Positions 4,785 through 63,690 of a DNA stretch of 64,000 bases are shown piece after piece. The stretch covers positions 119,348-183,347 of the forward strand of contig DATIXG010000072.1 in the NCBI GenBank assembly GCA_035518815.1, given 5' to 3'. Under the pieces are notes generated by a model. That model ran no database searches. It was not told the DNA's origin and saw only the letters and a list, made by a program, of their open reading frames with translations. Made by a program: the position numbers and the translations under genes. Numbering within the stretch: the stretch's first letter is position 1; each line of letters begins with the position of its first letter. Source of the stretch: Gemmatimonadales bacterium (GTDB taxonomy: Bacteria; Gemmatimonadota; Gemmatimonadetes; Gemmatimonadales; GWC2-71-9).

Positions 4785-4957
4785 GATTGATGCCTGAACC
4801 TAATGGCCGGCCCATTGTCGCCGGTAGAGGACAACGACCGATGAGCAGCGGCAACCGTTACTTCTCTAATAGATTGTCGTCGTTGCGCTTGCGTCACAGG
4901 CGCAGTACCCCGTCGCGTGGCATGCGGCCTGCCCTTCCCAGCCATCGGGAGGATCCT

Positions 4958-23909: not shown

Positions 23910-24629
23910 GTGTCAAGCTATAGTTCACCTGATGCCACGGCAAGCACGGAGCGCCACCCGGTGAGCGTGCCGGCGCCCGAAACCCGGGTCGAACGGCGTC
24001 GCATGGTCGCGTCGCAGCTCGCGCGCCGCGGGATTCACGACCGGCGTGTCCTCGCCGCCATGGGATGGGTGCCGCGCGAGTGGTTCCTGCCGCCGCCGGT
24101 CGCCCACGAGGCCTACGACGATGCGCCGCTGCCGATCGGCAGCGGGCAAACCATCTCCCAGCCGTGCGTCGTTGCCGTGATGACGACGGCCATCGCGCCC
24201 CGTCGACGGGATCGCGTCCTCGAGATCGGCACCGGGTCGGGATACCAGACCGCGATTCTCGCGCACCTCGCCGGGCGCGTGTTCACGATCGAGCGGCTCC
24301 CTGACCTGCTCGTCGAAGCGGAAGAGCGGTTGCGCCGCCTTCATATCACGAACGTCGAGACGCGTCTCGGCGACGGCGCGGGTGGCTGGCCGGAGGCGGC
24401 GCCGTTTCAAGGAATCATCGTGACGGCGGCGGCTCCCCGCGTCCCGGCGCCGCTGCTCGAGCAGCTGGCGGTCGGCGGGCGGCTCGCGATTCCGGTCGGC
24501 GACCGCTCGTCGCAGGAGCTGTTGATCTACGAGCGCGCGCGGGGCGGGATCGAAGAACGGAGCGCGGGTGAAGTCCGTTTCGTGCCGCTGATCTCCCAGC
24601 TCGCATTCGCCGAGGAGGAGCGGGTGTGA
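23910..24629 (+). CDS. pcm: Protein-L-isoaspartate O-methyltransferase
   Basis: 239 aa. Contains GQTISQPCVVAVM and VLEIGTGSGYQTAILA. Exact start uncertain. Confidence 0.85.
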   Translation: MSSYSSPDATASTERHPVSVPAPETRVERRRMVASQLARRGIHDRRVLAAMGWVPREWFLPPPVAHEAYDDAPLPIGSGQTISQPCVVAVMTTAIAPRRRDRVLEIGTGSGYQTAILAHLAGRVFTIERLPDLLVEAEERLRRLHITNVETRLGDGAGGWPEAAPFQGIIVTAAAPRVPAPLLEQLAVGGRLAIPVGDRSSQELLIYERARGGIEERSAGEVRFVPLISQLAFAEEERV

Positions 24630-25516
24630 AACGCCGCGCCGGTGATCTGCTCGGCGCCCACGTCTCGACGCAGGGTGGCGTGGCGGAGGCCCCGGCGCGC
24701 GGTGCGGCGATCGGCGCGACCGCCATCCAGGTCTTCACCAAGACCCCGAACCAGTGGCGCGAACCCGTGCTCACGAGTGCGCACGTGGCCGCGTTCCGCC
24801 AGGCGCTCGCCGCGAGCGGGGTGCGCGCCGTCGTGGCCCACGACAGCTACCTCATCAACCTCGCGTCTCCCGACGACGCGCTGCGCGCACGCAGCGCCCT
24901 CTGCTTCAGGGGAGAGCTGACCCGGTGCCGCGCGCTCGGCATCCCCTGGGTCGTCTCACACCCCGGGAATTACATCGATGACCGCGCGGCCGGGCTCGAG
25001 CGAAACGCCCGTGAGTACGCGGCGTGCCTCGCCGCGGTGCCGGGCGACGTGGGGGTGCTCATCGAGGGCACGGCGGGAGCGGGGACCGCGCTCGGCGCGT
25101 CGTTCGAGGAACTGGCGGCGCTGCGCGACGCGCTGCCCGCGGAGGCCCGGGCGCGGGTGGCGTTCTGCCTCGACACGGCGCACGTGCACGCCGCGGGGTA
25201 TGACGTGGCCGGCGACATCGGTGGGGTATGGGAGCAATTCGACCGTACCATCGGGCTCCCCCTGCTTAACTGCTTGCATCTCAACGACTCCAAGGCGGCG
25301 ATGGGCTCGCACCTCGATCGGCACGAGTGGATCGGCGAGGGACGCATTGGACCAGTCGCCTTCCGCTATATTATGCGCGACCAACGCTTCGCATCCGTGA
25401 TCAAGATTATCGAGACCCCCAAGGCAGACGACCCCTTGTACCACGATCGGCGCATGTTGCGGCGGCTGCGCGCCTACGGACGGGCCCGCACTCTCTCCCG
25501 GTCGAATCGGGCTTGA
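24626..25516 (+). CDS. nfo: Endonuclease IV (deoxyribonuclease IV)
   Basis: 296 aa. GTGA overlap with pcm. Contains LGAHVSTQGG, VVAHDSYLINLASP, CLDTAHVHAAGYD and LHLNDSK. Confidence 0.85.
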   Translation: MKRRAGDLLGAHVSTQGGVAEAPARGAAIGATAIQVFTKTPNQWREPVLTSAHVAAFRQALAASGVRAVVAHDSYLINLASPDDALRARSALCFRGELTRCRALGIPWVVSHPGNYIDDRAAGLERNAREYAACLAAVPGDVGVLIEGTAGAGTALGASFEELAALRDALPAEARARVAFCLDTAHVHAAGYDVAGDIGGVWEQFDRTIGLPLLNCLHLNDSKAAMGSHLDRHEWIGEGRIGPVAFRYIMRDQRFASVIKIIETPKADDPLYHDRRMLRRLRAYGRARTLSRSNRA

Positions 25517-25863
25517 CCAGCCCCGGCACACGGTCGGGAGGGTTCCGAGCGCCGGTCGCCGCCCTGCTGTTCGTGCTCCAGGCCGTCGGGGGTGGGGCGG
25601 TCGCGTTGGCGCACGCCAGCGAGCCGCAGACGACCCCGGTGAGCGTGGAGACGCACCACGACGCCTCCTGCGTCGTGATCCACGACCCGATCCGCTGCGC
25701 TCTCTGCTGGTACGCCGGATCGGTGCTCACCGCGCCGGCGGCACCGGCGGGGCCGTGCGCGGCGACGGTACAGCAGCGCGTCGGCCTCCCTGCGGTCGTC
25801 GTCATCGGCAGGCCTACCTTCCACGAGGCGCTGCCCAGGGCTCCTCCCTTCACGCTCTCCTAG
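25513..25863 (+). CDS. Small exported Cys/His-motif protein (paralog of 55481..55825)
   Basis: In-frame part of ORF 25327..25863. The TTG at 25513 overlaps the nfo stop (TTGA) and gives a signal-like RSGGFRAPVAALLFVLQAVGGGAVALAHA. Motif ETHHDASCVVIHDPIRCALCWY and C-terminal PRAPPFTLS are shared with the second copy. Confidence 0.55.
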   Translation: MTSPGTRSGGFRAPVAALLFVLQAVGGGAVALAHASEPQTTPVSVETHHDASCVVIHDPIRCALCWYAGSVLTAPAAPAGPCAATVQQRVGLPAVVVIGRPTFHEALPRAPPFTLS

Positions 25864-25929
25864 CGCATCGAACACGCCCGGCGTCACGGCGGGCGTTCAA
25901 ATCGTTCATCGGTACCAAGGAGAGCTCGC

Positions 25930-27195
25930 ATGGCTCACTTGCAACGTGTCGCCGCGTTTGCGGCGGCGGCGCTGCTCACGGCCGGCGGTGCGGCGGCGCA
26001 ACAACCGACGCAGCGCCAGGTGGATTCACTCGCAGCAGAGGTGCGAGCGCTCGAAGCGCGGCTCGACAGCCTGCGCGCAGTGGTAGGGACGGCCGCGACC
26101 CCGGCCGGGGCTCCCTCGCCCGTTACGCCGGCAGCGGATACGGGGCTCGCGGCGCTCCGGGCAGCTGCCGTGGCTGCGGCCGGCGCGGACACCACGACCC
26201 CCGCCGCCGACACGAGTGCGACGACGCGATTCTCGGGGCATGAGCGCAGCCAGTCCCAGCTCAATCCCGAGATCGGCGCGACCGGCGACGTCCGGGCGTA
26301 CGCGCAGTCGCCCGGCCAGGGAAACAACTTCGACCCGCGGGAATTCGAGATCGGGTTCCAGTCGGCCCTCGATCCGTATTCGCACACCAAGATTTTCGTG
26401 AGCCTGGAAAACGATCACGTGGAGGTCGAGGAAGGCTATGCCTACTGGATCGGTCTTCCAGGACACCTGCGGTTCGACATCGGGGCCTTTCGCCAGCAGT
26501 TTGGCGAGCTGAACCGCTGGCATCTGCACGCCCTTCCCGAAACGGAGTACCCGCTCGCCCTCCGCGCCTACTTCGGCGACGACGGCCTGTCCGGTACGGG
26601 GATCTCGCTGTACCGCGCGTTCGGTGGCCTGGGGACCCACGAGCTGACCGGACAGGTCACGCTCAGCCGCAGCGACGACCTCCTGTTCGCGGGCGGCACC
26701 CGGCCCAGCTATCTGCTGCATCTCCTCAATTTTTGGCAGCTCTCACCGGCGACCTACATGCAGGTCGGCCTGAGCGGGCTGTACGGCACCAACCCCGATT
26801 CGAGCCTGAAGACCGGTGTGGCAGGCCTCGAGTTCCGGCTGACCTGGCGGCCGCCGGAGCAGACCCTGTATCGCGATTGGACGTTGCGCGGCGAGCTGCT
26901 GGCGCTGCGGAAGGACTATGGCGGCGCCGCCAACACGCGATGGGGAGGCTATCTCAGCACGACGTACAAGCTGGACCAGCGGTGGATCGTCGGCGCGCGC
27001 TGGGACTACGTCGAAGCCCCCGCGAGCGGCCTCGTGACGCAACAGCTCGTGCCGTCCCTCACAATGTGGCAGAGCGAATGGGTGTTCCTCCGCGCGCAGT
27101 ATACGTGGAGCAAGCCCGAGAGCCTCGACGCCACGAGCCAACTGGCAGTCCAGATCGTATGGGCCATCGGCCCCCACAAACACGAGACCTACTGA
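25930..27195 (+). CDS. Outer-membrane porin-like beta-barrel with N-terminal coiled coil
   Basis: 421 aa. AAGGAG RBS. Signal ...LLTAGGAAAQQ. Heptad-like QVDSLAAEVRALEARLDSLRA, then alternating-hydrophobic strands through to the C-terminus. Confidence 0.6.
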   Translation: MAHLQRVAAFAAAALLTAGGAAAQQPTQRQVDSLAAEVRALEARLDSLRAVVGTAATPAGAPSPVTPAADTGLAALRAAAVAAAGADTTTPAADTSATTRFSGHERSQSQLNPEIGATGDVRAYAQSPGQGNNFDPREFEIGFQSALDPYSHTKIFVSLENDHVEVEEGYAYWIGLPGHLRFDIGAFRQQFGELNRWHLHALPETEYPLALRAYFGDDGLSGTGISLYRAFGGLGTHELTGQVTLSRSDDLLFAGGTRPSYLLHLLNFWQLSPATYMQVGLSGLYGTNPDSSLKTGVAGLEFRLTWRPPEQTLYRDWTLRGELLALRKDYGGAANTRWGGYLSTTYKLDQRWIVGARWDYVEAPASGLVTQQLVPSLTMWQSEWVFLRAQYTWSKPESLDATSQLAVQIVWAIGPHKHETY

Positions 27196-27196
27196 C

Positions 27197-28243
27197 ATGT
27201 CGCCCTACATTCGACTGCTCTTGTCGCTCCACGTACCGGGCGCGCACCTGACGGCCGATCCCGTAAAGGTCGTCACTTCGCTCACCACGTACGCCGCAAT
27301 CGCCCGAGAGATCGTCGGGGATCGCGGCGAAGTGAGCGCGATCGCCTCTCCGTACGAGAATCCCCACTACGTGCAGCCCAAACCCAGCTTCGCACCGCTG
27401 CTCGCGGGAGCCGACCTCTTCGTCACAACCGGACTCGACCTCGAGCTCTGGGTCCCCGCTCTCCTGGACAAGGCGAGCAACCCCAAGATCACCGAGGGCG
27501 GTGTCGGCTACGTGGCGGCCAGCGCCGGAGTCCCGCTGCTCGACGTCCCCACGAGCTATTCCCGCACGCAGGGCGACATTCACGTGTTCGGCAACCCGCA
27601 CATCTGGACGGCGCCGCTCAACGCCATAATCATCGCGCGGAACATCCTGACGGGCTTGAAGCGCGTGGACCCGGCCAACGCGGAGTATTTCGCGGGCCGG
27701 GAGCAGGTGTTCGAGGATCGCGTGTACCGCGCCTTGTACGGCGACGAGCTGGTGAAGCTGCTCGGCGGCGCGACACTCGCCACCCTCGATCGCCAGGGCA
27801 AGCTTTTCGAATTCCTGAGCGGCCATCAGTACGGCGGAGCGCCGCTCACGGCGCGGCTGGGGGGATGGCTGAAGCAGGGCCTGCCGTTCCGCGGCAAGCC
27901 CGTTGTATGCTATCACAAGGAGTGGGACTACTTCTCCCGCGAGTTCGACGTGCCGTGCGTGGACTACATCGAGCCCAAGCCCGGCATTCCCCCCACGCCA
28001 AGCCATGTGCGCGAGGTGATCGACGAGATCAAAGAGCAGCGGATCGCAGTCCTTCTGTCGACCAGCTACTACGACCGCGAGCAGGTGCGCGAGGTCGCGG
28101 CGCGCACCGGAGCCACCGCCGTCATCGTGGCGGGGAACGCTGGGGGCGAGCCTGGCACGGAATCGTACGTAGGTCTGGTCAGCCTCTGGGTGGGGGCGCT
28201 GGCGCGCGGGTTCGCCGCGACGCCGCCCAGCCCTCAGCCGTAA
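27197..28243 (+). CDS. Metal ABC transporter substrate-binding protein (ZnuA/TroA family)
   Basis: 348 aa. Contains VVTSLTTYAAIAREIVG, NPHYVQPKPS, GNPHIWTAP and YHKEWDYF, the pattern of cluster A-I metal-binding proteins. Confidence 0.8.
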   Translation: MSPYIRLLLSLHVPGAHLTADPVKVVTSLTTYAAIAREIVGDRGEVSAIASPYENPHYVQPKPSFAPLLAGADLFVTTGLDLELWVPALLDKASNPKITEGGVGYVAASAGVPLLDVPTSYSRTQGDIHVFGNPHIWTAPLNAIIIARNILTGLKRVDPANAEYFAGREQVFEDRVYRALYGDELVKLLGGATLATLDRQGKLFEFLSGHQYGGAPLTARLGGWLKQGLPFRGKPVVCYHKEWDYFSREFDVPCVDYIEPKPGIPPTPSHVREVIDEIKEQRIAVLLSTSYYDREQVREVAARTGATAVIVAGNAGGEPGTESYVGLVSLWVGALARGFAATPPSPQP

Positions 28244-28258
28244 CGCGCGGGCCAACCG

Positions 28259-29086
28259 GTGCTCGCGTTCATGGCGGCGCCCTTCGTGGCGTGCATGATT
28301 CTCGTCGCGATCCATTCGTACCTCGGACTGCACATTATCGCCCGGGGGGTCATCTTCGTGGACCTGTCCCTCGCCCAGATGGCGGCGCTGGGTGGCGTCG
28401 TCGCGCTCTTGTACGGCGCCGCTCCCGACTCGCGCGAAGCGTTCATCTTCTCGCTGGCGTTCACGTGCCTGGGCGCGGCGGTGTTCGCCCTGACCCGGAC
28501 GCGGACCAAGAGCCGCGTGCCGCATGAGGCCATCATCGGAATTGTGTTTGTGACGGCGTCCGCGGCGGCGATTCTCGTGGCCGACCGGGCGCCGCGCGGG
28601 GCCGAGGCGATCCACGATGTGCTCGAGGGGGCTATCATCTGGATCACGTGGCCCACTATCGTCACGAAGGGGATCGCCTATAGCTCCCTCGGGCTGTTGC
28701 ACTTTCTGCTGCGACGCAGGTTTCTGCGGATCTCGTTCGACCCTGAAGGGGCCGAGCGCGACGGCTGGCGCATCCGGTGGTGGGACTTCCTGTTCTACGT
28801 CTCCTTCGGCCTCGCGGTGACGCTGTCCGTTCCCGTAGCCGGCGTCTTGCTTGTCTTCACCATGTTGGTCGTGCCAGCGGTGATCGCGTTCCTGTTCTCG
28901 AGCGACATTCGGTCGATGGTCATCATTTCGTGGGGCGTGGGCATGGTCGCGTCGCTGCTCGGCCTCTGGCTGTCCTATGCCGGCAACTTCCCCACCGGGC
29001 CGCTCATCGTCTGCATGTATGCGCTGCTCCTTCTGCTCGCGGGCGCCCTGCGGTGGCTCGGCGTGGCGGGAGAACGGGCGACGTGA
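28259..29086 (+). CDS. Metal ABC transporter permease (ZnuB/TroCD family)
   Basis: 275 aa. Polytopic membrane protein directly after the binding protein. ABC-3 type profile. Confidence 0.8.
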   Translation: MLAFMAAPFVACMILVAIHSYLGLHIIARGVIFVDLSLAQMAALGGVVALLYGAAPDSREAFIFSLAFTCLGAAVFALTRTRTKSRVPHEAIIGIVFVTASAAAILVADRAPRGAEAIHDVLEGAIIWITWPTIVTKGIAYSSLGLLHFLLRRRFLRISFDPEGAERDGWRIRWWDFLFYVSFGLAVTLSVPVAGVLLVFTMLVVPAVIAFLFSSDIRSMVIISWGVGMVASLLGLWLSYAGNFPTGPLIVCMYALLLLLAGALRWLGVAGERAT

Positions 29087-29724
29087 CGGGCGGGCATGCG
29101 ATCGGCCGGTCAGGTGGGCGGCTCGTCGCCATGCTCCTCACAGCCGCCCCGGCTCACCGTCTGACTGCCCAGATCTCCTGGCACGTCGCCGCCGGCGCCC
29201 GCTACACGACACCCCTCGTGCACGATTCCATCGTCAGTCCGTTCGACGTCAAGCTCGCGCTCGCGCCTGAGCTGGCCCTCACCGTCGGCGCGCAACCCGG
29301 ACACGGATGGGCGCCCCAGGTCCTGCTGGACGCGTCCACCAGCAACCTCGTGCGGCACGACCCTGACGGTACAACTATCACGCTCGAGCGCGTGAGCACC
29401 GTGTCGTTCGCGGTCGGCGTGAGCCACACCCTCCCCGGGGGCCTGCGTGGCAGCGTCGCCGTTGGCGGCCTCAAGTACCTCCCCAGCGAAGAGAGCGGCA
29501 TCTTCCGGCAAGGCAGCGGCGCCATCTCGCCCCTCGGCGCTCTGAGCGTCGCATACGGACTGCCGCTCGGCGAGCCCGGACGACCTCGGCGGTGGTGGCT
29601 GGAAGTGCGCTATGACATCCACGCGTTCACCACGCCCGCGCTGGACGATGAGGGCTTCACGTCCTCGCAGACCGTGCACCGCGTGGCGCTCGCGCTTGGC
29701 CGCGAGTTCGGACACACGCCGTGA
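29083..29724 (+). CDS. Hypothetical protein, possible small outer-membrane beta-barrel
   Basis: In-frame part of ORF 28777..29724. Start is GTG 29083 (GTGA overlap) or ATG 29131. Repeated amphipathic strands (VSFAVGVSHTL, GSVAVGGLKYL, RWWLEVRYDIHAF). Confidence 0.45.
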   Translation: MTGGHAIGRSGGRLVAMLLTAAPAHRLTAQISWHVAAGARYTTPLVHDSIVSPFDVKLALAPELALTVGAQPGHGWAPQVLLDASTSNLVRHDPDGTTITLERVSTVSFAVGVSHTLPGGLRGSVAVGGLKYLPSEESGIFRQGSGAISPLGALSVAYGLPLGEPGRPRRWWLEVRYDIHAFTTPALDDEGFTSSQTVHRVALALGREFGHTP

Positions 29725-53077: not shown

Positions 53078-53150
53078 GTGACCCGGGCGGGGATCGAACC
53101 CGCGGCCTGCGGATTAAAAGTCCGCTGCTCTACCAACTGAGCTACCGGGT
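53078..53150 (-). tRNA. tRNA-Lys (anticodon TTT)
   Basis: Hand-folded from the reverse complement: acceptor GACCCGG/CCGGGTC, D arm GCTC-AGTTGGTA-GAGC, anticodon arm GCGGA-CTTTTAA-TCCGC, T arm GCGGG-TTCGATC-CCCGC, discriminator A. Confidence 0.9.
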
Positions 53151-53220
53151 CGCAACCAGACCAAACTAGTTGCCCTGCCCGGCTTTGTGCTACGGCATCG
53201 ACTGCGAACGAGATTGAGGT

Positions 53221-53292: not shown

Positions 53293-55311
53293 TCAGAGTC
53301 GGTACCCGACGATGGTCGTCGGAGCGGTCCGCAGAAACAGCATCCCGGCGACATCATCCACGGCGTAGACCGGCTCGCGCTCCTTGCCCAGCAACACCCG
53401 CGAGCGCGCCTGCGCGTTGTCCTTGTCGATCTGGAGCAGGATGTTGCCGTTGCCATCGGGCGCCCGCGTCAGCATGAAGACCGATCCGGGCACCGTGAGC
53501 GAGGCCTTGAAGCGCTTCGTCGCGAGCGCCGCCGACTGGTGCGAGTACCCCGCGAGCTGGGCCCCGCCGGTGGTGTAGGCCGACGCGACCTGCCCGTAGA
53601 TACGGCGCGCGGTCGTGTCGGTCGCCGTGCGCGACGCCTGGGCGAACGCGTCCCCGTACGACGACGCCGCGGCGCCGTACAGACCGGCGCGCACCGCGTC
53701 CAGACGGTGCAGCGCCCGTAACAGGCCGGGCAGCTGCGGCGCCGGATTGTACACCTGCTGCTTGACCTGTCCGTCGCGCCCGACCAACACGAGGTTCTGC
53801 GGCGAGATGAGGACGATCCCCGCGCTCCGCATCTCCATGTCCGTGGGGTCCTCGTCGCCCTGTAGCCTGATCTCAGCACTCAACGCCCGGAAGGTTCCGG
53901 CGTCGCGATCCACAGCGTAGAGGCGGTGGTCGCGGTTCGCGAACACGTACATCGTCCGCCCCTCGGCGGCATGGTGCAGGTAGTAGCGCTCGGCGTCGTA
54001 GCCCGATGCGCTCATCGGCTTGCCGCTCTCGATCGCATCCTTGAACTTGAGCTCACCCTTCGCGAGGTCGACGAAATTGACCTCGGCGTTCGTGACTGAG
54101 TCGGGGTGCGTCACATAGAGCAGGCCCGCCGGCGTCAACTCCGCATAGCTCAGCTGCCCCTTGATCTTCACGTCCTTCTTCAACCGCAGTGTCGCGGTCG
54201 CAACGTCCAACACGTTGACGAACGTCTTCGACTCGGCGTCCACCTCCAGAACAGCGGCGTCGCCCGTGATGATCGCGTCCGTCACGTTACCGCGCATGTG
54301 CACCGGCTTGGGCGCGATGGTCGTGCCGTCGGCGTAGCGGGCGACGTTGAGCCCCGTCTGCACGACGCCGTTCACCACCTTGCGGCTACCTGATAGCTCG
54401 CCCTCGGGCGCTCCCTCGGGGAGCATGATGATCCCTGCCGGGTGCTGCACGATGTCGCTGATCCACCCGTCGACCTTCGCGGGCTGCGCCCAGAGCGCCT
54501 GACCGTCAGTCAGGCGGTACGCCATGAGGCGGTCGTCGAAACTCACGTATATGCGGTCAGCCTGAGCAACCGACGGGTACAGCCGCACGTGCCGGGCGAT
54601 GTTGCCCGTTTTCCCGGTCGCGAGCGTTGCCGACCAGCGGATGGCGCCGTTCCGGGCGTCAATCGCCCGGAGGCCGGTGAGGGTGTGGACGACGATCATG
54701 TCGGGGCCGGCCTGCAGGACTTCGAGCGCGGTGCCTTCGGATGCGGCGCGGACCAACCCCTGCATGAGGCCGCCCAAGCCCTTCTTCTTCGGCTCGGTTT
54801 GTTCGAACAGCGTCTCGTTCGTCCACCGCTGCTGGCCCGTGGCGAGATCGTACAGCGCCACCACCGGCGGACCGTTGGCGCGGCGGCCGTGGACGAGCAG
54901 TGTGCCGGTTTGCGGCAAGACGCGGCGCGTCACGACCTGCACGAGCGCCAGGCGCCGCGAGTCGAATACGGTCGAGCCCGTCACGGGGTCGAAGATCTCG
55001 AGCAGACCCGGTCGCGCCGCTTCCATCAGGAGCGACCCCTCGACGATGCGGACGCTGTCGGGTGGCAAGCCGCCGAGCTCCGTTTTGGTCCACGCGACCT
55101 GGCCGCGGTCCATGTCGACGCCGGCGAGAGCGGCGTCGGTCGAGACGAGCAGCCCACCCGCCGGCGTGACCTGCTGCCAGCGGATATCCCCGCGCATCTG
55201 GAGCGTCCACGCGGGAGTCGCACCGGGCGCCTGCGAATGGGCGGCTGCGGTCGAAATGAGAGCGACGAGCAGGCACAGCAGGAACGAACGACGGCCGAAG
55301 ACGGCAATCAT
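53293..55311 (-). CDS. Exported PQQ-like (BamB-type) beta-propeller repeat protein
   Basis: ORF 53293..55362. Start at ATG 55311 (MIAVFGRRSFLLCLLVALISTAAAHS). Recurrent propeller-blade motifs: LAGVDMDRGQVAWT, ALYDLATGQQRWT, LRAIDARNGAIRWS, LMAYRLTDGQALWA, LYAVDRDAGTF. Confidence 0.75.
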   Translation of the reverse strand: MIAVFGRRSFLLCLLVALISTAAAHSQAPGATPAWTLQMRGDIRWQQVTPAGGLLVSTDAALAGVDMDRGQVAWTKTELGGLPPDSVRIVEGSLLMEAARPGLLEIFDPVTGSTVFDSRRLALVQVVTRRVLPQTGTLLVHGRRANGPPVVALYDLATGQQRWTNETLFEQTEPKKKGLGGLMQGLVRAASEGTALEVLQAGPDMIVVHTLTGLRAIDARNGAIRWSATLATGKTGNIARHVRLYPSVAQADRIYVSFDDRLMAYRLTDGQALWAQPAKVDGWISDIVQHPAGIIMLPEGAPEGELSGSRKVVNGVVQTGLNVARYADGTTIAPKPVHMRGNVTDAIITGDAAVLEVDAESKTFVNVLDVATATLRLKKDVKIKGQLSYAELTPAGLLYVTHPDSVTNAEVNFVDLAKGELKFKDAIESGKPMSASGYDAERYYLHHAAEGRTMYVFANRDHRLYAVDRDAGTFRALSAEIRLQGDEDPTDMEMRSAGIVLISPQNLVLVGRDGQVKQQVYNPAPQLPGLLRALHRLDAVRAGLYGAAASSYGDAFAQASRTATDTTARRIYGQVASAYTTGGAQLAGYSHQSAALATKRFKASLTVPGSVFMLTRAPDGNGNILLQIDKDNAQARSRVLLGKEREPVYAVDDVAGMLFLRTAPTTIVGYRL

Positions 55312-55480
55312 GACTTCCCCCTGAGTCAGTGGGCCCAGGGCGCGGGGCATATATCCCCCCACGAGGACGCGGAGCGCAAGAGCAACCCGTCAGGCGTGAG
55401 CTACGACACACTTGCCGGACCATACTCTGCATCTCGAAACATTTGTTGCAGTTCCGAGCCTCCCCTCTTATCCTGTGTCC

Positions 55481-55825
55481 ATGGTGTCACGGTCGCGGCG
55501 CGCCCGCTTGCTTCTCGCCGGTCTCCTGGCCCTGCAGGTCGGGATGCCGGGCGCCGTCGCGTGGGCGGATGCGCGGCTCGACGCGACCAGCGCCTTGGCC
55601 GTCGCGCACTTCGAATCGCACACGACCGCATCGTGTGTGCACATCCATCCGGCGGACTGCGCCTTTCACCGCTTTCTGTCCGCTCCCCTCGCGCCAGGCA
55701 GGCCCCTCGCGGTCAGCCTTCGCGTAGGTGCACCTCGCGCCGTTTGGTATGTCTCCCGTGATGTCGGCTTCACCGCTCCGCAGGAACGCCTCCCCGACTC
55801 TCGCGCTCCACCGCAGCTCTCGTAA
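55481..55825 (+). CDS. Small exported Cys/His-motif protein (paralog of 25513..25863)
   Basis: In-frame part of ORF 55412..55825. ATG 55481 gives MVSRSRRARLLLAGLLALQVGMPGAVAWA. Motif ESHTTASCVHIHPADCAFHRF and C-terminal DSRAPPQLS align with the first copy. Confidence 0.6.
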   Translation: MVSRSRRARLLLAGLLALQVGMPGAVAWADARLDATSALAVAHFESHTTASCVHIHPADCAFHRFLSAPLAPGRPLAVSLRVGAPRAVWYVSRDVGFTAPQERLPDSRAPPQLS

Positions 55826-55925
55826 CCCGGTCTGACCCGCGCCACGGCGCGGCCCTTGGCACGGAACGAACCCCGGGACCCCGGGGCGCGCCGTGCAATG
55901 ACCGCTTGTACGGGAGGCTAGTTCC

Positions 55926-58316
55926 ATGCGCAGCATTCCATTTCCATACCTGGCGCGAGCCCTGGTATTTCTCGCGCTCGTTGCCGCACCTCGCACCGCT
56001 CACTCGACCCCCGCGCCCAAGGTGTCAGGCCGCGTCGCGGCCGTCGGCGGAGCACCCGCCGCCATCCCGGCCACCGGCGTCGGGGACATCAGCGGTGCCG
56101 TGACCGACAGCGTCACCGGGAAGCCGTTGCCGGGCGGCGAGGTGCGAATCGTCCAACGTGGGAACGTGGTCGCGACGACGACCACCGACGCGTTCGGCGA
56201 GTTCATCGTACACAACCTCGCGGCGGGCTCCTACACCGTCGAAGTCCGCTACCTGGGCTATCGCGTTGCGTCGCGCGAGGTCAACCTGACCGGAGCAGCC
56301 GCGCAACAAGCGCTCGCCTTCCAAATGGCGCCCATCCCCGTCAACCTCGAGGCGGTGCAGGTCCGGGCGGAGGTGCCGCTCGCCGTGGACACAAGGACCG
56401 GAAATCAGGTGTTCAAGCAGAACGACTACCACGGCGCACCCAGCAGCACCGCGTCGCAGATCCTGCAGCAGTCCATCGCGGGGGCGGCGCGGGCGCCGAC
56501 GGGCGAGGTCCACATTCGGGGCCAGCACGCCGAGTACACCTACTACGTCGACGGCATCCCGGTCCAATCGGGAATCTCGGGCAGCCTGAACGAGTTGTTC
56601 GACCCCGAGGTCGTGAATCAGATCGTCTTTCAGACGGGCGGGTGGGACCCTGAGTTCGGGAACAAAAACGCGGCGATCGTCAACGTCACCACGCGCATCC
56701 CCGCCGGCGGATTCCATGCCGACCTCGGGGCGTATGGCGGGTCATTCACCACGAACGGCCAGTCGCTCAACCTGAGTACCAACGCCGGTAAGTGGGGGTT
56801 CTTCGCGTCGGGCACCCGGAAAGTCACGGATATGCGTCAGGAGCCCGTCGCCTTCGACACCGTCACCAATGAGCCCTTCAACTACCACAACGACGGTGAG
56901 GACCTGTTCGGGTTCGGCAAGATCGAGTATGTCCCGTCCGCACACGACGTCGTGAACCTCGACGTGAACTGGTCGCGTACGCATTTCGCCGTGCCCTTCG
57001 ACTCGTCGCAGGGGATCACCGACGCTCATCAACAGGATGTAAACGGTTTCGTCAATCTCGGGTGGCGGCACCGCTTCGCCGTCGAGCAGGGAGAGGGAGG
57101 GCGCGCGTCGGAGCTGTTTGCCGGCGGCTTCTATCGGAACGGCAGCTTGACCTACACACCCGGCGTCGCGGACGAGCCGTCATTCGTCTTCTATCCCGAC
57201 ACGACGACAGCTTACAACCTCAGCGAGGACAGGAATTTCAACTCGGTGGGCGCAAAGCTTGATTACCTGTTCCGCCCGCACCACGGTCTCGAGTTCAAGC
57301 TCGGCGCTCAGGGGTCAATCACGCGTGGGCACGAGGATTTCGAGACGGTCGATTCGGCTGGCAACCCGGGCCCCGCCTCCAACTCGGACCTGAATGGCAG
57401 CGACGTCGGCGCCTACGCGCAGGTAGCCATCTCCCCCTCGGACCGGTGGGAGCTCCGGACCGGGCTCCGCTTCGACAATCACAACGCGCCGTTCGCGGGC
57501 AACCAGAACCAGCTGAGCCCGCGAGTGAAGCTCAGTTTCCTGGCGGATCCGGCCAACACGTTCTGGGTATACTACGGGCGCCTCTTTATTCCGACGAATG
57601 TGGAGGACTTACGAGCGATCACGAGCGTCGCCCAGGGCGACACCGTGGCCGAGCCGACGCTGCCCGAGCGGGATGACTTTTTCGAAGTAGGCTACGTCCA
57701 CCGCTTCTCGTTCGGCGTCGTGACGAAGCTCTCCGGCTACTACAAGGTCAGCAAGCCAGGGATTGACGACAACACGGTTCCTGGGTCGTCGATCGTGACC
57801 TCGGTGAACATCGAGGAGGTTCACACCACGGGGATCGAGGCGGTTGTGGAGGTGCGGACGCGAGGCCCCTTCTCGGGCTACCTGAACTTCGCGTTGAACC
57901 ACGCCTACGGCTCCGGGGCGATCACAGGGGGATTCTTCCCAACGGCGCCGCCGGCCGGCGATTTCGACCTCGATCACGACCAGCGGATCTCGGTGGCGGG
58001 GAATGCGATCTACGCACACCACGGCTGGTATCTGTCGGCGACCGGGATCTATGGGACGGGCCTCACGAACGGCAACGAAGACGCCACCTTCGGCACCCGC
58101 CTGCTGGACTTCAATGCGGATGGGCACGTGGCCCCGAACTTCATTCTCAACGCCAGCGTGGGCTACACGTGGGTGGTCGGGAGCACCGCCATTCGGCCGC
58201 AGCTCTACGTGGACAACCTGCTCGACAACCACTACTTGCTAAAAGGGGCCTTCTTCAGTGGAGCGTCGGTTGGCCGGCCGCGTTCGGTCCAATTTCGCGT
58301 GAGCATGGGGGTCTAG
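55926..58316 (+). CDS. TonB-dependent receptor with N-terminal carboxypeptidase-regulatory-like domain
   Basis: 796 aa. GGGAGG RBS. Signal ..LVAAPRTAHS. ISGAVTDSVTGKPLPGGEVRIV...GSYTVEVRYLGY (CarboxypepD_reg-like), then plug and a 22-strand-type barrel. Confidence 0.85.
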   Translation: MRSIPFPYLARALVFLALVAAPRTAHSTPAPKVSGRVAAVGGAPAAIPATGVGDISGAVTDSVTGKPLPGGEVRIVQRGNVVATTTTDAFGEFIVHNLAAGSYTVEVRYLGYRVASREVNLTGAAAQQALAFQMAPIPVNLEAVQVRAEVPLAVDTRTGNQVFKQNDYHGAPSSTASQILQQSIAGAARAPTGEVHIRGQHAEYTYYVDGIPVQSGISGSLNELFDPEVVNQIVFQTGGWDPEFGNKNAAIVNVTTRIPAGGFHADLGAYGGSFTTNGQSLNLSTNAGKWGFFASGTRKVTDMRQEPVAFDTVTNEPFNYHNDGEDLFGFGKIEYVPSAHDVVNLDVNWSRTHFAVPFDSSQGITDAHQQDVNGFVNLGWRHRFAVEQGEGGRASELFAGGFYRNGSLTYTPGVADEPSFVFYPDTTTAYNLSEDRNFNSVGAKLDYLFRPHHGLEFKLGAQGSITRGHEDFETVDSAGNPGPASNSDLNGSDVGAYAQVAISPSDRWELRTGLRFDNHNAPFAGNQNQLSPRVKLSFLADPANTFWVYYGRLFIPTNVEDLRAITSVAQGDTVAEPTLPERDDFFEVGYVHRFSFGVVTKLSGYYKVSKPGIDDNTVPGSSIVTSVNIEEVHTTGIEAVVEVRTRGPFSGYLNFALNHAYGSGAITGGFFPTAPPAGDFDLDHDQRISVAGNAIYAHHGWYLSATGIYGTGLTNGNEDATFGTRLLDFNADGHVAPNFILNASVGYTWVVGSTAIRPQLYVDNLLDNHYLLKGAFFSGASVGRPRSVQFRVSMGV

Positions 58317-58358
58317 AGATGCTTCTCGACCTGTCGCGGCGTTCATCGCCCGCGTAAC

Positions 58359-60284
58359 GTGGGCGTACTGAGCGCCGCGGTACGGCTTGCGGCAGGCCTC
58401 GGCGTGGTCGCCGGAGTCGGCGCGGCGCAGAGCACGGGTGACAGCGCCGAGGCCCCGCCTGCCAGTCTCATCGAGCTACTCGAGGAGACGCCCGGCATTC
58501 GTGTGGAGACCACATCCCCGGGGCTCGGCTCGGTGGGGATTCGCATTCAAGGTCTCCCGGGCGAATACACCGAGGTACTCGTCGACGGACTCCCGCTGCT
58601 CGGCGTCCAATCCGGAGGGTTGGGGTTCGCGCAGGTGTCGGCGCTCGACATCGAGCGCGTGGAGGTGGTCAAGGGTCCGGCGACGGCCTTGTACGGACCG
58701 TCCTCGTTGGGCGGGATCGTGAATCTCATTTCCCGTCCGCCCGGCGGTGCACCGGAGGTCGTGCTCAATCAGACCTCCCAGGACGGCACCGATCTCATGG
58801 CCTGGTTGTCTCAGGGTCTCGGAGACCGCTGGGGTCTCACGGTCCTCGGCGGCGCGCACCGGCAGGGCGCGCAGGATGTCAACAACGACGCCTGGGCCGA
58901 CGTGCCGGGCTTCCAGCGCATCGAGCTACGACCTCGGCTCTTCTGGAAGACTCCGCGCGGCGCCTCGCTCGTCGCGACCCTGGGCGGGATGTCCGAAGAG
59001 CGCGCGGGTGGGACCCTGCCGGGAATGATCCTGGCCGACGGACAGTCCTTCGCCACGTCCGCGAACACCAACCGTGCGGATGTGGGACTGGTCGGCGTGT
59101 TTCCGGTAGCCGGTGCCGACACATTCACCGTGCGGGGATCGGCGGCCGGCGCGTGGGAGCGGGAAACATTCGGACCGACCACCCAGCGCTACGTGCAGCA
59201 CGGGGAGTACCACACGGCCTTCACTCAGGCCACGCTGACTGTCCCCGGCTCCAAAGTCACATGGGTCGTCGGGGCGGCGTACGAGCAGAATGCGTTTCAT
59301 TCCCCCGACCTGGCGGGGTTCGAATACACGTACAACACACCGTCCCTGCTGGCGCAGGCGACCGTGGCCCTCGGCTCGAGGTTCAGTGTGATGGCGAACG
59401 GCCGCTGTGACTGGCAGAGCGAATACGGCACCACGTGCAGCCCGCGCGGGACTGCGTTGTTCCGCGGGCCGGGACGGTGGGAGGTCTGGCTATCTGGCGC
59501 GACCGGATTCTTCGCACCGACCCCGTTTCTCGACGAGACCGAGGGGATCCCCCTCGCTCGACTCGTTCCGTTCACGACGCGGGTCATCACGATTTGCAGC
59601 GCCGGCCTCTGCTCGAGCGACTCGGGGGGCGTGCGCACCACGGCGCCCTTCTCGATTGCGGCACAACGGGCCCGCTACGGCTCGCTCGATTTCGCGCGAC
59701 GCGTGAAAGGGCTCGAGCTTGGGGCAACGTTCTTCACGGCCAGTGTCGACCACCCCCTCATCCTCTCGGAGCTGAACCCGTTCGACGAGCGCCCACAACT
59801 GGTCAACGCCTCCGGCCCGCTTCGCACCGCAGGCGCGGAGCTCGCCGTAGTCTATGCTCCGCGGACCATACGGATTGCGGCAGACTACACCTACCTCCAC
59901 TCGACGCTGATTTCCGCAGCGACGGCCAGCCGCGTTGAGGCACCACTCACCCCCCGGCACAGCGGGGCGCTCGATGTCGGGTGGAGGGAAGCCTCCCGCA
60001 GGACACGCCTGGGGCTTCACATCGCCTATACTGGTCGGCAAGCCGTCTTCGACGACCCCTACCGCACCGCGACCCCGTCTTACGCGACCGTCGCGTTCCG
60101 CGCCTCGCGCCGCATCGGCGTCATCGACTTGTACCTGAACGGCGAGAACCTCGGCAACGTGCGACAGACGCAGTACGACCCCCTGCTCATGCATGCGCCG
60201 AGCGCGGAGCTGCAGTGGACCACTGAGGTGTGGGCTCCGCTGGAGGGGCGCGTGCTCAACGCCGGCGTGCGGGTCGCGTTCTAA
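58359..60284 (+). CDS. TonB-dependent receptor (plug + barrel)
   Basis: 641 aa. GTG start. Plug motifs IRIQGLPGEYTEVLVDGLPL, VEVVKGPATALYGPSSLGGIVNLISR. C-terminal ...NAGVRVAF ends in an aromatic residue. Confidence 0.85.
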   Translation: MGVLSAAVRLAAGLGVVAGVGAAQSTGDSAEAPPASLIELLEETPGIRVETTSPGLGSVGIRIQGLPGEYTEVLVDGLPLLGVQSGGLGFAQVSALDIERVEVVKGPATALYGPSSLGGIVNLISRPPGGAPEVVLNQTSQDGTDLMAWLSQGLGDRWGLTVLGGAHRQGAQDVNNDAWADVPGFQRIELRPRLFWKTPRGASLVATLGGMSEERAGGTLPGMILADGQSFATSANTNRADVGLVGVFPVAGADTFTVRGSAAGAWERETFGPTTQRYVQHGEYHTAFTQATLTVPGSKVTWVVGAAYEQNAFHSPDLAGFEYTYNTPSLLAQATVALGSRFSVMANGRCDWQSEYGTTCSPRGTALFRGPGRWEVWLSGATGFFAPTPFLDETEGIPLARLVPFTTRVITICSAGLCSSDSGGVRTTAPFSIAAQRARYGSLDFARRVKGLELGATFFTASVDHPLILSELNPFDERPQLVNASGPLRTAGAELAVVYAPRTIRIAADYTYLHSTLISAATASRVEAPLTPRHSGALDVGWREASRRTRLGLHIAYTGRQAVFDDPYRTATPSYATVAFRASRRIGVIDLYLNGENLGNVRQTQYDPLLMHAPSAELQWTTEVWAPLEGRVLNAGVRVAF

Positions 60285-60312
60285 GCTCCGAGGGCCACTC
60301 CTGAAATGAAAC

Positions 60313-60333
60313 GAGGCGGCACAAGGCCGCCTC
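60313..60333. terminator. Perfect hairpin between the converging receptor and membrane-protein genes
   Basis: GAGGCGGC-acaag-GCCGCCTC, 29 nt after the receptor stop. The minus-strand side is followed by GTTTCATTTC. Confidence 0.45.
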
Positions 60334-60372
60334 GCTCCTCTCAGGCAATTCTCCTGCAACTTCCACCGGGGA

Positions 60373-60468
60373 TTACGACCGGCATCCGACAATGGTCGCC
60401 GGAGCGGTCTGCAGGGGCACTATCCCTGCAACATCTTCTACCGCGCAGTCCGGCTCACGTTCCCCCCG
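60373..60468 (-). pseudogene. Remnant homologous to the last ~31 codons of the beta-propeller gene at 53293..55311
   Basis: My minus-strand translation gives ..GEREPDCAVEDVAGIVPLQTAPATIVGCRS-stop. The propeller C-terminus is ..GKEREPVYAVDDVAGMLFLRTAPTTIVGYRL-stop. About 20/31 residues identical with stops aligned. An in-frame TAG lies upstream and there is no credible start. Confidence 0.65.
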
Positions 60469-61174: not shown

Positions 61175-62893
61175 ATGCAAAACCCCGACATCGCCCGTGC
61201 CTTCGACGAGGTCGCCGACCTCCTCGAGATCAAGGACGAGAACCCGTTTCGTATCCGCGCCTACCGTAATGCGGCGCGCGCCATCCGCGACTTCCCCGAC
61301 CCCGCGGCGGATTGGGTGCGCGCCGGGCGTGACCTGACCGAGATCCCGGGAATCGGCGAGGACCTGGCCGAGAAGATCGCGGCCCTCGTGCGGACCGGCG
61401 AGCTGCCGCTGCGCAAACAACTCCTGGCCAAGCTGCCCGCCGGCCTCCTCGATCTGCTGCGCATCCCGGGACTCGGCCCCAAGCGGGTCAAGCTGCTCTA
61501 CTCGAAACTCAAGATCAAAACGGCCGCCGATCTCGAGAAAGCGCTCGACGCCGGGAAGGTGACGAAGCTCAAGGGGTTCGGCCCCAAGATGGAGGAGAAG
61601 CTGCGCGCGGGACTCGGCCTAGCGCAGGTCACCGAGCGCCGGTTGCTCCTCAACGAGGCGGAGATTCAGGCGGACGCCGTGGTCAACTATCTCAAGGCAG
61701 GCGGTGGTATCCGCGAGATCGCGGTCGCCGGCAGCTACCGGCGCCGCCGGGAAACGATCGGCGATCTCGACATCCTCGCCACGGCGACGAGCAGCGCGAA
61801 GGTGATGCAACGCTTCACCGCGTATCCCGATGTCGCCGAGATCGTCTCCAAGGGCGAGACACGCTCGACGGTGAAGCTCGCGGGCGGGTTGCAGGTGGAC
61901 CTGCGAGCGGTCGAGCCCGCCTCGTACGGCGCCGCCCTCCAGTACTTCACCGGCTCCAAGGCCCACAACGTCGAGCTGCGCAAGATCGCGCAGGACCAGG
62001 GCTACAAGCTGAATGAGTACGGTCTCTTCAAGGGCGCGCGCCGCGTGGCGGGCAAGACCGAGGAGGAGATCTACGCCAAGCTCGGGCTGGACTGGATTCC
62101 GCCGGAGCTGAGGGAAGAGCGCGGCGAAATCGCCCTCGCGCGCGAGCATCGGTTGCCGAAGCTCGTAGCCGTGGACGACATGCGCGGCGACCTGCAGATG
62201 CACACGAACACGACCGACGGCAAGGGCACGATCGACGAGATGGCGCAGGCGGCGCAGGCCCGCGGGTACGAGTACATCGCGATCACGGATCACTCGAAGC
62301 GCGTCATGATGGCCCATGGGCTCGACGCCGCCGGCCTGCGCGCGCAGTGGAAGGTGATCGACGCGTGGAACGCCGCCGCGCGCGGCTTCACGATCCTGAA
62401 GAGCGTGGAGATGGATATCCTCGAGTCGGGCGAGCTCGACCTGCCCGACGACGTGCTCGCCGAGGCCGACTACGTGGTGGCCACGATTCACTACGGCATC
62501 GCGCAACCGGAGAAAGAGATCACGCGCCGGATGCTGGGCGCGGTGCGGCACCGCTGGGTGGACGCGATCGGGCATCCGACGGGCCGGATTCTCGGCAAGC
62601 GCGAGCCCTATCCCCTCGACTTCGACGCGGTGGCCCGCGCGGCCGCGGCGGAGGGGTGCTTGCTCGAGCTGAACGGCCACCCGGACCGCATGGACCTGCC
62701 CGACACGCTGGCCGCGGCCGCGAAACAGCTCGGCGCGCGGTTCGTGCTGTCCACCGACAGCCATCAGCCAGGCAATCTCGCGTTCATGAAGTACGCCGTG
62801 GATCTGGCGCGAAGAGCCGGACTCGAGGCGGGGGACATCCTCAACACCAGGCCGCTGGCGGATTTTCGAAAGGGCCTGAAGCGGGCCCGCTAG
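61175..62893 (+). CDS. polX: DNA polymerase X family protein with C-terminal PHP domain
   Basis: 572 aa. Starts IARAFDEVADLLEIKDENPFRIRAYRNAARAI. Helix-hairpin-helix units (IPGIGEDLAEKI, IPGLGPKRVKLL), GSYRRRRETIGDLDIL, and PHP motifs LQMHTNTTDG and ITDHS. Confidence 0.9.
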   Translation: MQNPDIARAFDEVADLLEIKDENPFRIRAYRNAARAIRDFPDPAADWVRAGRDLTEIPGIGEDLAEKIAALVRTGELPLRKQLLAKLPAGLLDLLRIPGLGPKRVKLLYSKLKIKTAADLEKALDAGKVTKLKGFGPKMEEKLRAGLGLAQVTERRLLLNEAEIQADAVVNYLKAGGGIREIAVAGSYRRRRETIGDLDILATATSSAKVMQRFTAYPDVAEIVSKGETRSTVKLAGGLQVDLRAVEPASYGAALQYFTGSKAHNVELRKIAQDQGYKLNEYGLFKGARRVAGKTEEEIYAKLGLDWIPPELREERGEIALAREHRLPKLVAVDDMRGDLQMHTNTTDGKGTIDEMAQAAQARGYEYIAITDHSKRVMMAHGLDAAGLRAQWKVIDAWNAAARGFTILKSVEMDILESGELDLPDDVLAEADYVVATIHYGIAQPEKEITRRMLGAVRHRWVDAIGHPTGRILGKREPYPLDFDAVARAAAAEGCLLELNGHPDRMDLPDTLAAAAKQLGARFVLSTDSHQPGNLAFMKYAVDLARRAGLEAGDILNTRPLADFRKGLKRAR

Positions 62894-63690
62894 GCGCTCC
62901 CCGTCTTTCGCTCGCGCTTCGCCGCCGCTCCCTGCCGGGGGGCCGGCTTCAAGCGCTGAAATCGGTAGCCGGCGCTGCGGACGGTCTCGATGCAGAGCCC
63001 TGCGTCGCCGAGCTTGTGGCGCAGCCGCTGGAGATGCATGTCCACCGTCCGCGTCGTCACATCTGATGGCGCCCCCCACACCGTTTCGAGCAGCTCCGCG
63101 CGGCTCTGCACGCGTCCTTCGCGCTGCATGAGCGTCCGGAGCAGCTTGAACTCGGTGGCCGTGAGCTTCACATCGTTGCCATGCACCAGCACCCGATGGG
63201 CGGTGCGATCGAGCACAATCGGTCCGACCGACAGCCGGCCCCCCGAGGAGACGCTGTGGGATACGAGCCGGCGGGTGATCGCGCGCACGCGGAGGACCAG
63301 CTCTTCGGCCGAGCAGGGCTTGGAGAGACAGTCATCCGCCCCGAGCGAAAGGCCTTTGATGCGGTCGGGCTCCCGGTCGCGCTCGACCAGAAACAGCACA
63401 CCGACCTCTCTCGTCTCTTCGCGCACTCGCAGCTGGGCAAGCACTTCGAAGCCGGAGAGTCCGACGAGGGCCGCGTCGAGCACGATGAGCGTGGGCCGCT
63501 CCTCGCGCGCGGTCTCGATCGCGTCGAGTCCATTGACGACAGTGCTGACCCGATAGCCGGCGCGCGCGAGATGATACGCGACCGCCGCGTTCAGATCCGC
63601 CTCACTCCCGGCGACGAGGACGCGGTGTGTACTTCCGCCGTTCCCGTGGGCGGCGGATTCACTCGTCTCGCGCATGGACCCGATTCCCAT
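62890..63690 (-). CDS. OmpR/PhoB-type response regulator with N- and C-terminal extensions
   Basis: 266 aa. Receiver LIVLDAALVGLSG. Winged helix LTATEFKLLRTLMQREGRVQSRAELL..VDMHLQRLRHKL..VRSAGYRF. An alternative start at 63675 is possible. Confidence 0.85.
   Translation of the reverse strand: MGIGSMRETSESAAHGNGGSTHRVLVAGSEADLNAAVAYHLARAGYRVSTVVNGLDAIETAREERPTLIVLDAALVGLSGFEVLAQLRVREETREVGVLFLVERDREPDRIKGLSLGADDCLSKPCSAEELVLRVRAITRRLVSHSVSSGGRLSVGPIVLDRTAHRVLVHGNDVKLTATEFKLLRTLMQREGRVQSRAELLETVWGAPSDVTTRTVDMHLQRLRHKLGDAGLCIETVRSAGYRFQRLKPAPRQGAAAKRERKTGSA

Follow-up and report, generated by a model that had tools for sequence, protein, structure and literature searches.

A candidate metal-sensing ribosome-arrest leader upstream of a TonB-dependent receptor gene in Gemmatimonadales

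Here we examine a locus in a 64,000-nucleotide (nt) stretch of the genome of a Gemmatimonadales bacterium (GenBank assembly GCA_035518815.1, contig DATIXG010000072.1, positions 119,348 to 183,347; this whole stretch is referred to as the window). The window has a GC content of about 68%, and its nearest relatives are all Gemmatimonadales metagenome-assembled genomes. A first-pass annotation had placed four open reading frames (ORFs) at the locus, namely an exported beta-propeller protein of 672 amino acids (aa), a 114-aa Cys/His "mini-protein," a TonB-dependent receptor (TBDR1) with a CarboxypepD_reg domain and a second receptor (TBDR2) consisting of Plug and barrel, and all four were recovered as placed. 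We read the locus differently from that annotation, which saw in it a self-contained outer-membrane unit. With a probability of roughly 70%, the 114-codon ORF is an upstream ORF (uORF) encoding a CruR/CutF-type leader peptide that is exported, binds metal and arrests the ribosome, and that controls the receptor gene behind it. In silico evidence was obtained for the arrangement of the motifs, the linkage of the genes, constraint at the nucleotide level and pairing of the RNA; from these lines and by analogy, we infer the arrest itself, which metal is sensed and in which direction it acts. The features concerned, including the Shine-Dalgarno (SD) sequence of TBDR1 and its partner in the minimum free energy (MFE) fold, are as follows.

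55481-55825, plus strand: mini-protein, Cys/His uORF of 114 aa, candidate CruR/CutF-like arrest peptide
55481-55573, plus strand: predicted export signal with RSRRAR n-region, hydrophobic helix and likely AWA/DA cleavage site
55607-55669, plus strand: putative metal-binding motif H43-x-E-x-H47-x4-C52-x3-H56-x3-C60-x2-H63, from sequence alignment
55802-55813, plus strand: candidate RAPP arrest motif R108-A-P-P111, three codons 5' of the stop
55814-55825, plus strand: uORF tail CAG CUC UCG UAA, the anti-SD strand, paired with 55908-55920 in the MFE fold
55826-55925, plus strand: spacer between uORF and TBDR1, 100 nt, structured, with two internal hairpins inside the tail:SD helix
55912-55917, plus strand: TBDR1 SD GGGAGG, within the 3' end of the spacer
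55926-58316, plus strand: TBDR1 (T1 type), Pfam CarboxypepD_reg N-domain and 22-strand-type barrel, the proposed regulated gene

The mini-protein matched no Pfam or NCBIfam model, and a PDB sequence search with its profile returned zero matches. Its family comprises 140 close matches and 591 clusters at 50% identity, in which C52, H56, C60, R108 and P110 are invariant and A109 and P111 at least 90% conserved. The family C terminus invariably reads (S/P)RAPP-x-L-S-stop (RAPP-QLS-stop in the window), and ribosome arrest by RAPP has been characterised (PMC10951233). Between the last metal ligand and the RAPP arginine lie 44 residues in 44 of 45 distinct mini-proteins and 43 to 44 in 25 relatives of a paralogue, mini2, while the roughly 40 residues in between are hypervariable. 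The RAPP codons vary synonymously across the family, so that this motif is constrained as peptide. Position 63 is a cysteine in 20 of the 45 mini-protein relatives, and the export segment is kept in the family as LQ..PGAxAWADA. An AlphaFold2 model was confident for the N-terminal helix only, with a predicted local distance difference test (pLDDT) score below 50 for the remainder, and the protein is predicted to be unstructured past this helix.

The last codons of the uORF behave differently from the RAPP codons. In the MFE fold of 55796-55945, the final codons and stop GCAGCUCUCGUAA pair with the TBDR1 SD region UACGGGAGGCUAG, enclosing two hairpins, and the helix begins one codon past the predicted A-site codon. 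The same architecture was obtained in MFE folds of two distant family members and of the junction between mini2 and the following outer-membrane protein (OMP) gene in the window, where the mini2 tail CUCUCCUAG pairs with the SD of the OMP gene (25917-25924, plus strand). In per-sequence MFE tests, the SD core was paired with the uORF tail in 39 of 43 mini-protein loci and 16 of 24 mini2 loci, compared with 5 of 57 controls, which were co-directional gene pairs from the same loci. The tail:SD duplex has a median of -15.7 kcal/mol versus about -9 for shuffled tails, and pairing in constructs anchored on tail and SD was 72% versus 38 to 54% in slid registers. The terminal Leu codon is CUC in 42 of 43 cases (98%), a codon used at 49% elsewhere in the same ORFs, and the terminal Ser codon is UCC in 41 of 44 (93%; 25% elsewhere). 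Such near-fixed terminal codons show that the uORF tail is constrained as RNA. The spacer measures 96 to 118 nt in 42 loci and has a slight C-over-G bias (0.37 versus 0.325).

We analyzed gene linkage in 42 species-representative genomes with a mini-protein relative plus seven metagenome loci (49 loci), on all of which the window proteins were mapped. A CarboxypepD_reg receptor gene lies directly 3' of the mini-protein gene in all 36 loci whose sequence continues for 1.5 kb or more downstream, a set that includes a distant stand-alone pair. The first-pass annotation had grouped the mini-protein with both receptors and proposed to check the co-occurrence of propeller, mini-protein and receptors; the grouping stands for the mini-protein and the first receptor (36/36), fails for the propeller (0/49) and holds for TBDR2 only in two relatives, L003 and L008. 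In 30 of the 42 genomes, the pair is joined to a mini2-OMP-ZnuA-ZnuB cluster, convergently in 16 and as one co-directional array in 14 (mini2-OMP-znuA-znuB-mini-TBDR-(HExxH protein)-(p29)-(M10-like)-malic enzyme), the other loci being mostly truncated contigs. This physical joining speaks for the metal-related function that the first-pass annotation had suggested and against its self-contained locus. The window retains the cluster at 24 to 33 kb in the same synteny (PCMT-nfo-...-malic enzyme) without the mini-TBDR pair, which sits 25 kb off between tRNA-Lys and ydjM. Judged from gene order, the cluster appears to be contiguous in most Gemmatimonadales and to have been split in the window by a rearrangement, which would be why the inner-membrane transporter lies 25 kb away.

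That a paralogous mini-protein heads a ZnuA/ZnuB-like cluster at 25.5 kb had been noted before and was borne out (36% identity, E=6e-6), with the genes for OMP, ZnuA-like substrate-binding protein (SBP) and ABC-3 permease following it. The cluster behind mini2 was annotated with Pfam and NCBIfam.

25513-25863, plus strand: mini2, paralogous uORF with C-x3-H-x4-C-x2-C; RAPP at 25837-25848
25930-27195, plus strand: OMP of 421 aa, behind mini2
27197-28243, plus strand: ZnuA-like SBP (PF01297, 1.4e-42)
28259-29086, plus strand: ABC-3 permease (PF00950, 1.6e-36)
~29083-29724, plus strand: beta-rich protein of ~200 aa
29721-30404, plus strand: M10-like HExxH lipoprotein

Taken together, these data suggest the following course of events. 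During translation of the uORF, the nascent N terminus would engage the export machinery, and the ribosome would stall on reaching R108-A-P-P111, its P and A sites occupied by Pro110 and Pro111, respectively. The arrested ribosome would then cover the next 12 nt, namely the three final codons plus stop (CUCUCG UAA) that form the anti-SD strand. With the SD 100 nt downstream unmasked during arrest, TBDR1 and probably the co-transcribed TBDR2 would be translated (ON). At this point the Cys/His motif, 44 residues before RAPP, would just have emerged from the exit tunnel; metal binding to it would relieve the arrest, the helix would re-form and the receptor would be switched OFF. We assign this polarity to the metal because of the analogy to CruR and the uptake function of the receptor. 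Rho may contribute, as it does for CruR, and mini2 at 25.5 kb would exert the same control over the OMP-ZnuA-ZnuB genes. Both uORFs and their targets would make up a single regulon for metal acquisition, with zinc as the most likely metal.

Several observations weigh against this interpretation. Covariation between tail and SD is modest (score 0.125 versus 0.107, reached by 12 of 500 shuffles), and generic complementarity between SD and anti-SD accounts for much of the pairing. In the window itself, the tail:SD duplex is of below-average stability (-12.8 kcal/mol, equalled by 25 of 200 shuffles), and the fold z-scores of mini to TBDR1 and mini2 to OMP are only about -2. RNAalifold on a MAFFT alignment of the full spacers returned no structure, as the alignment did not hold the SD side in register; this analysis was replaced by the anchored constructs and the per-sequence MFE tests with controls. 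As to the peptide, the window protein reads C60-A-F-H63 and so carries no CXXC, which occurs in the paralogue mini2 (C-A-L-C), in 20 of 45 mini-protein relatives and in 25 of 25 mini2 relatives. Neither it nor 21 close relatives matched DUF2946 (PF11162, gathering score 23.7 bits), the family of CruR, even at E<=10; nine of ten distant family members gave full-length, sub-threshold matches of 11 to 18 bits. The export signal was read only by eye and from the AlphaFold2 helix (residues 6 to 35). Finally, arrest at RAPP on Gemmatimonadota ribosomes is a prediction from conservation of the motif.

Regarding the metal, we give zinc an even chance. It is favored by the link to ZnuA and ABC-3, the match of the SBP to AztC, the ZnuD-like receptors and the Cys3His/Cys2His2 ligands. 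The zinc protein AztC is the best NCBIfam match of the SBP, whose third ligand position is a His by eye (VVCYHKEWDYF), a trait of Zn-type ZnuA proteins; a Cys3His/Cys2His2 ligand set is likewise typical of zinc. None of the copper genes PCuAC, YcnI, CopC and PepSY was found in any of the 49 loci. Zinc is opposed by the copper link of DUF2946 relatives, by the closest solved relatives of the SBP, which are the Mn/Fe binders YfeA, PsaA and MntC, and by an inspection by eye of some 70 loci 5' of mini and mini2, which revealed promoter-like hexamers only and no conserved Zur/Fur-like palindrome.

The same uORF mechanism might instead respond to copper or to manganese/iron, with the receptor importing that metal or a metallophore, an alternative that we consider rather doubtful. 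Besides the nearest solved SBPs, which point to Mn/Fe, it draws on the sub-threshold DUF2946 similarity of the distant members, since DUF2946 and CutF-like proteins mostly head copper genes (PMC9426467, PMC9973294). Receptors that replace TBDR1 in relatives reach 69 to 85 bits against a copper-receptor model, but they score higher against ZnuD (143 to 174 bits), and the AztC match, the third SBP ligand, the missing copper genes and the zinc-typical ligands all count against this alternative. A more specific version of the zinc reading is put forward only tentatively, at clearly less than even odds: the mini-protein would be a natural zinc-responsive arrest peptide, in which a Zn-folded Cys3His/Cys2His2 knuckle, 44 residues from RAPP and hence barely past the exit tunnel or translocon, pulls the ribosome free, and two paralogous sensors would coordinate translation of the receptor and of the porin-like OMP/ZnuAB importer without a Zur-type repressor.

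The first-pass annotation implicitly treated the mini-protein as a structural partner of the receptors. Accordingly, it could be a stable metallochaperone, free in the periplasm or anchored to the membrane, or an accessory subunit of the receptor, that passes metal between TBDR/OMP and ZnuA. Its conserved Cys/His ligands, its export signal, the ever-adjacent outer-membrane protein gene and an N-terminal helix conserved beyond what is usual for a signal peptide would fit such a role. A stable protein would hardly explain an invariant RAPP at a fixed 44 residues from the ligands and three codons from the stop, final codons that are constrained as nucleotides and pair with the SD of the next gene, or about 40 hypervariable residues without a confident fold; moreover, CutF is undetectable in vivo (PMC9973294). 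We therefore regard a metallochaperone as improbable and a regulatory nascent peptide as the better explanation.

The receptor behind the uORF is not always the same protein. TBDR1 is recognized by Pfam through its barrel (9.4e-18) and CarboxypepD_reg; Pfam Plug went undetected at E<=0.01, a plug-like IRG...YxVDGxP being visible by eye only. The slot is occupied by the T1 type in 20 genomes (58 to 73% identity) and by a ZnuD/haem-receptor-like type in 18. The two types are mutually unrelated, both carry CarboxypepD_reg, and it is the second that gave the ZnuD and copper-receptor scores mentioned above. The window and its sister L003 (receptor at 3745-5985) differ in receptor type although the flanking genes are 66 to 93% identical. 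Hence, the receptor is subject to non-orthologous replacement under the same leader. TBDR2 is a lineage-specific addition.

58359-60284, plus strand: TBDR2, Pfam Plug and barrel, minimal

Its Pfam matches are Plug (8.9e-19) and barrel (8e-12), its PDB sequence matches span the plug only, and its orthologues are confined to the two closest relatives, L003 (66%) and L008 (69%). A PDB sequence search with TBDR1 gave no match, and neither receptor matched the NCBIfam ZnuD model (NF038289, cut-off 950 bits). Searches of NCBIfam and PDB for a substrate clade of the two receptors yielded plug-level or weak barrel matches only.

The propeller gene and its surroundings comprise the following features.

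53293-55311, minus strand: propeller ORF, 672 aa from ATG
60312-60334, no strand assigned: GC-rich hairpin between TBDR2 and the propeller relic, a possible bidirectional terminator from sequence
60376-60465, minus strand: propeller 3'-end relic, GEREPDCAVEDVAGIVPLQTAPATIVGCRS* versus the propeller C terminus by tblastn

The propeller gave a Pfam PQQ_2 match over residues 150 to 420 only (41 bits). In an AlphaFold2 model (pLDDT 74), it is a tandem beta-propeller, predicted to be exported, whose helical insert around residues 529 to 593 has low confidence; for this model, Foldseek found generic tandem WD40-like propellers only (BamB with a TM score of 0.40 on one lobe). With family-level hidden Markov models, BamB and acido_non_PQQ reached only 18 to 25 bits against cut-offs of 285 to 650. 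An AztD-like zinc chaperone, a PQQ/XoxF-type dehydrogenase and a BamB orthologue were thus considered and dropped for want of family-level support. The protein had zero matches in the 49 mini-TBDR loci even at E<=1. Its homologues (more than 1400 matches, 672 to 696 aa) are 75 to 87% identical, compared with 45 to 72% for the uORF-receptor module, and lie in unrelated neighborhoods; it probably belongs to the core envelope proteins of Gemmatimonadales.

Comparison with the sister genome suggests how the propeller came to lie beside the uORF. The relic comprises 30 codons of the propeller C terminus (68% over 28 aa) directly behind ydjM. The sister genome is represented by contigs L003 and L050 from the same sample, of which L050 ends in the TBDR2 C terminus; joined, they read tRNA-Lys, mini, TBDR, TBDR2, then convergent propeller, ydjM, PolX and response regulator. 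In L003, tRNA-Lys (3104-3177) lies 99 bp 5' of the uORF, whereas the window has the propeller between the two, which indicates that the gene was inserted between tRNA and uORF promoter in the window genome. The relic would mark the ancestral position of the propeller downstream of ydjM, and together with the sister gene order it points to the adjacency as a by-product of local duplication and deletion. The propeller thus appears to be an accidental neighbor outside the system, a case in which gene adjacency in a single genome can mislead. That propeller, mini-protein and both receptors form one functional outer-membrane machine is very improbable, since the adjacency in the window, the convergent propeller beside TBDR2 in the sister genome and the predicted export of the propeller stand against its absence from the 49 loci, its unrelated neighborhoods elsewhere, its far stronger conservation, its differing position and orientation in the two closest genomes with a 3' relic left behind, and a generic tandem-propeller fold without AztD-like or PQQ-enzyme match.

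Upstream of the uORF, the divergent region of 169 nt is lower in GC (0.61 versus about 0.68 in the window), as the first-pass annotation had stated. It contains a promoter-like element read by eye.

55446-55474, plus strand: promoter-like TTGCAG-17 nt-TATCCT, upstream of the uORF

Both hexamers and their spacing recur in the relative L003, the element scores under the threshold of a consensus scan, and we treat it as a candidate promoter only. The -10-like hexamer (TATCCT in the window; TAATAT in relatives such as L001 and L006) ends 6 to 7 nt 5' of the start codon, and no SD sequence was seen 5' of the uORF start (55469-55483 in the window), so that translation of the leader may begin on a leaderless mRNA. 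The first-pass annotation had pointed to an inverted repeat, CTCGAAAC-N10-GTTCCGAG, which is indeed present at 55433-55458, where it overlaps the candidate -35 element. Comparable repeats occur at a mean of 1.1 per shuffle of the 169-nt region (at least one in 50% of shuffles) and at 3.5 per 169 nt window-wide versus one observed here, and this one is not kept in the closest relatives L003 and L008. As an operator it was rejected on account of its chance-level frequency and lack of conservation.

Genes for TonB/ExbBD, Fur/Zur or sigma/anti-sigma pairs were found nowhere in the window, in agreement with the earlier statement that an energising complex is missing. The accompanying claim that no regulator lies nearby was correct for Fur/Zur and sigma/anti-sigma factors; an OmpR-type response regulator gene is present at 62890-63690 (minus strand), in a conserved RR-PolX-YdjM block (RR, response regulator) that is unrelated to the uORF-receptor module. 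An Rfam scan of 52.8 to 60.6 kb returned tRNA-Lys as the sole match; this tRNA-Lys(UUU), at 53078-53151 on the minus strand, lies between a DUF983 gene and the propeller. A consensus promoter/terminator scan gave nothing useful, and the hairpin at 60312-60334, which has no U tract, was not detected by it.

Within the Znu-type cluster, the OMP (25930-27195) remained without match in Pfam, NCBIfam and PDB sequence searches; it has a His-rich HKHETY tail and is 64 to 73% conserved in relatives. No ABC ATPase gene was found in the ZnuA/ABC-3 cluster of the window or of relatives (e.g., L001, L004, L006), the sole ATPases in the window being FtsE-like (16971-17666) and of ABC-2 type (20606-21340). 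An nfo-like apurinic/apyrimidinic (AP) endonuclease gene (24626-25516) overlaps the candidate TTG start of mini2 (25513); nfo-like AP endonucleases are a Zn-dependent enzyme family. In relatives, mini2 follows a few nt behind nfo with its own AAGGAG, and owing to this closeness the cluster may be co-transcribed with PCMT-nfo. A protein of about 557 aa with an HEFQH (HExxH) motif follows the receptor in 22 of 42 genome loci (e.g., L006 12653-14326) and is absent from the window. It had no Pfam or NCBIfam match and was rejected as an analogue of the propeller, to which it shows no similarity. Its sequence and that of the M10-like lipoprotein suggest that the cluster includes secreted zinc-binding proteins.

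A regulatory uORF explains the mini-protein, and the Znu cluster at 25.5 to 30.4 kb explains the missing inner-membrane transporter. The 591 clusters, which lack Pfam annotation, would enlarge the CruR/CutF class of metal-sensing nascent chains, probably as an unannotated subfamily of this recently described regulatory class with a dual-uORF layout and a new metal specificity. Because the anti-SD is encoded by the last codons, the read-out of this family is unusually clear in silico. If the proposed control is real, metal uptake in Gemmatimonadota would largely be governed at translation, and the paired uORFs would be a compact, portable metal-responsive switch; if the metal is zinc, it would join copper among the metals sensed by nascent chains, and the phylum Gemmatimonadota would be added to the range of this kind of sensing.

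The closest known system is CruR (Bp2923, DUF2946) of Bordetella pertussis, a copper-responsive uORF that heads the operon of the TonB-dependent transporter gene bfrG and has a CXXC motif and RAPP three residues from its end at a spacing of 45±2 (PMC9426467). CruR is arrested when its two Pro codons occupy the P and A sites, and RAPP uORFs have been reported to be widespread ahead of TonB receptor genes (PMC12992588). The mini-protein gene resembles it as a small first gene before a TonB-dependent transporter gene, with RAPP at -3 and a spacing of 44 instead of 45. In contrast to CruR, the window protein is unrecognized by DUF2946, it carries C-x3-H-x3-C-x2-(C/H) in place of a lone CXXC, and the system occurs in Gemmatimonadota, linked to a ZnuA/ABC-3 importer and not to copper genes. 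Whereas CruR has a 162-nt spacer and Rho-dependent termination, the spacers found here are highly structured, 96 to 118 nt long, and have their SD masked by the last codons of the uORF.

CutF of Rhodobacter capsulatus uses an SD-shielding stem-loop that is opened by the stalled ribosome (PMC9973294). Like the system proposed here, in which export is predicted, it combines an exported nascent chain that senses metal with a Pro-rich stalling motif at the C terminus and the SD-shielding structure. By the rules used for CutF-like proteins (PMC9973294), the window protein is short enough (114 aa; <150), carries PP in its last 15 residues and has a same-strand neighbor at <1 kb (100 nt to TBDR1); for the signal peptide, the basic n-region, the hydrophobic helix at residues 6 to 35 and the AWA/DA site were read by eye and with AlphaFold2. 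The corresponding survey does not mention zinc or Znu contexts (PMC9973294). CutF controls a detoxifying multicopper oxidase and its stalling is prolonged by metal, whereas the target here is an uptake receptor, so that metal should shorten the arrest, and the anti-SD lies inside the coding end of the uORF.

ApdA, ApdP and SecM (PMC7897499, PMC10951233, PMC12992588) likewise are small exported proteins encoded 5' of a regulated gene, with RAPP or RGPP near the C terminus, and the arrest point predicted here is at Pro-Pro as well. They monitor Sec/YidC activity, while the mini-protein carries a metal-ligand motif and belongs to a metal-uptake cluster. The ZnuD/ZnuABC systems (Neisseria ZnuD; Caulobacter Zur regulon, PMC4176598) share the combination of TBDR, cluster A-I SBP and ABC-3 permease, and the receptors of relatives resemble ZnuD. 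Unlike these systems, the one described here has no ZnuC ATPase in its cluster, a TBDR1 without recognizable substrate clade and no Zur box or gene that we could find, and its control is apparently translational, by means of two uORFs.

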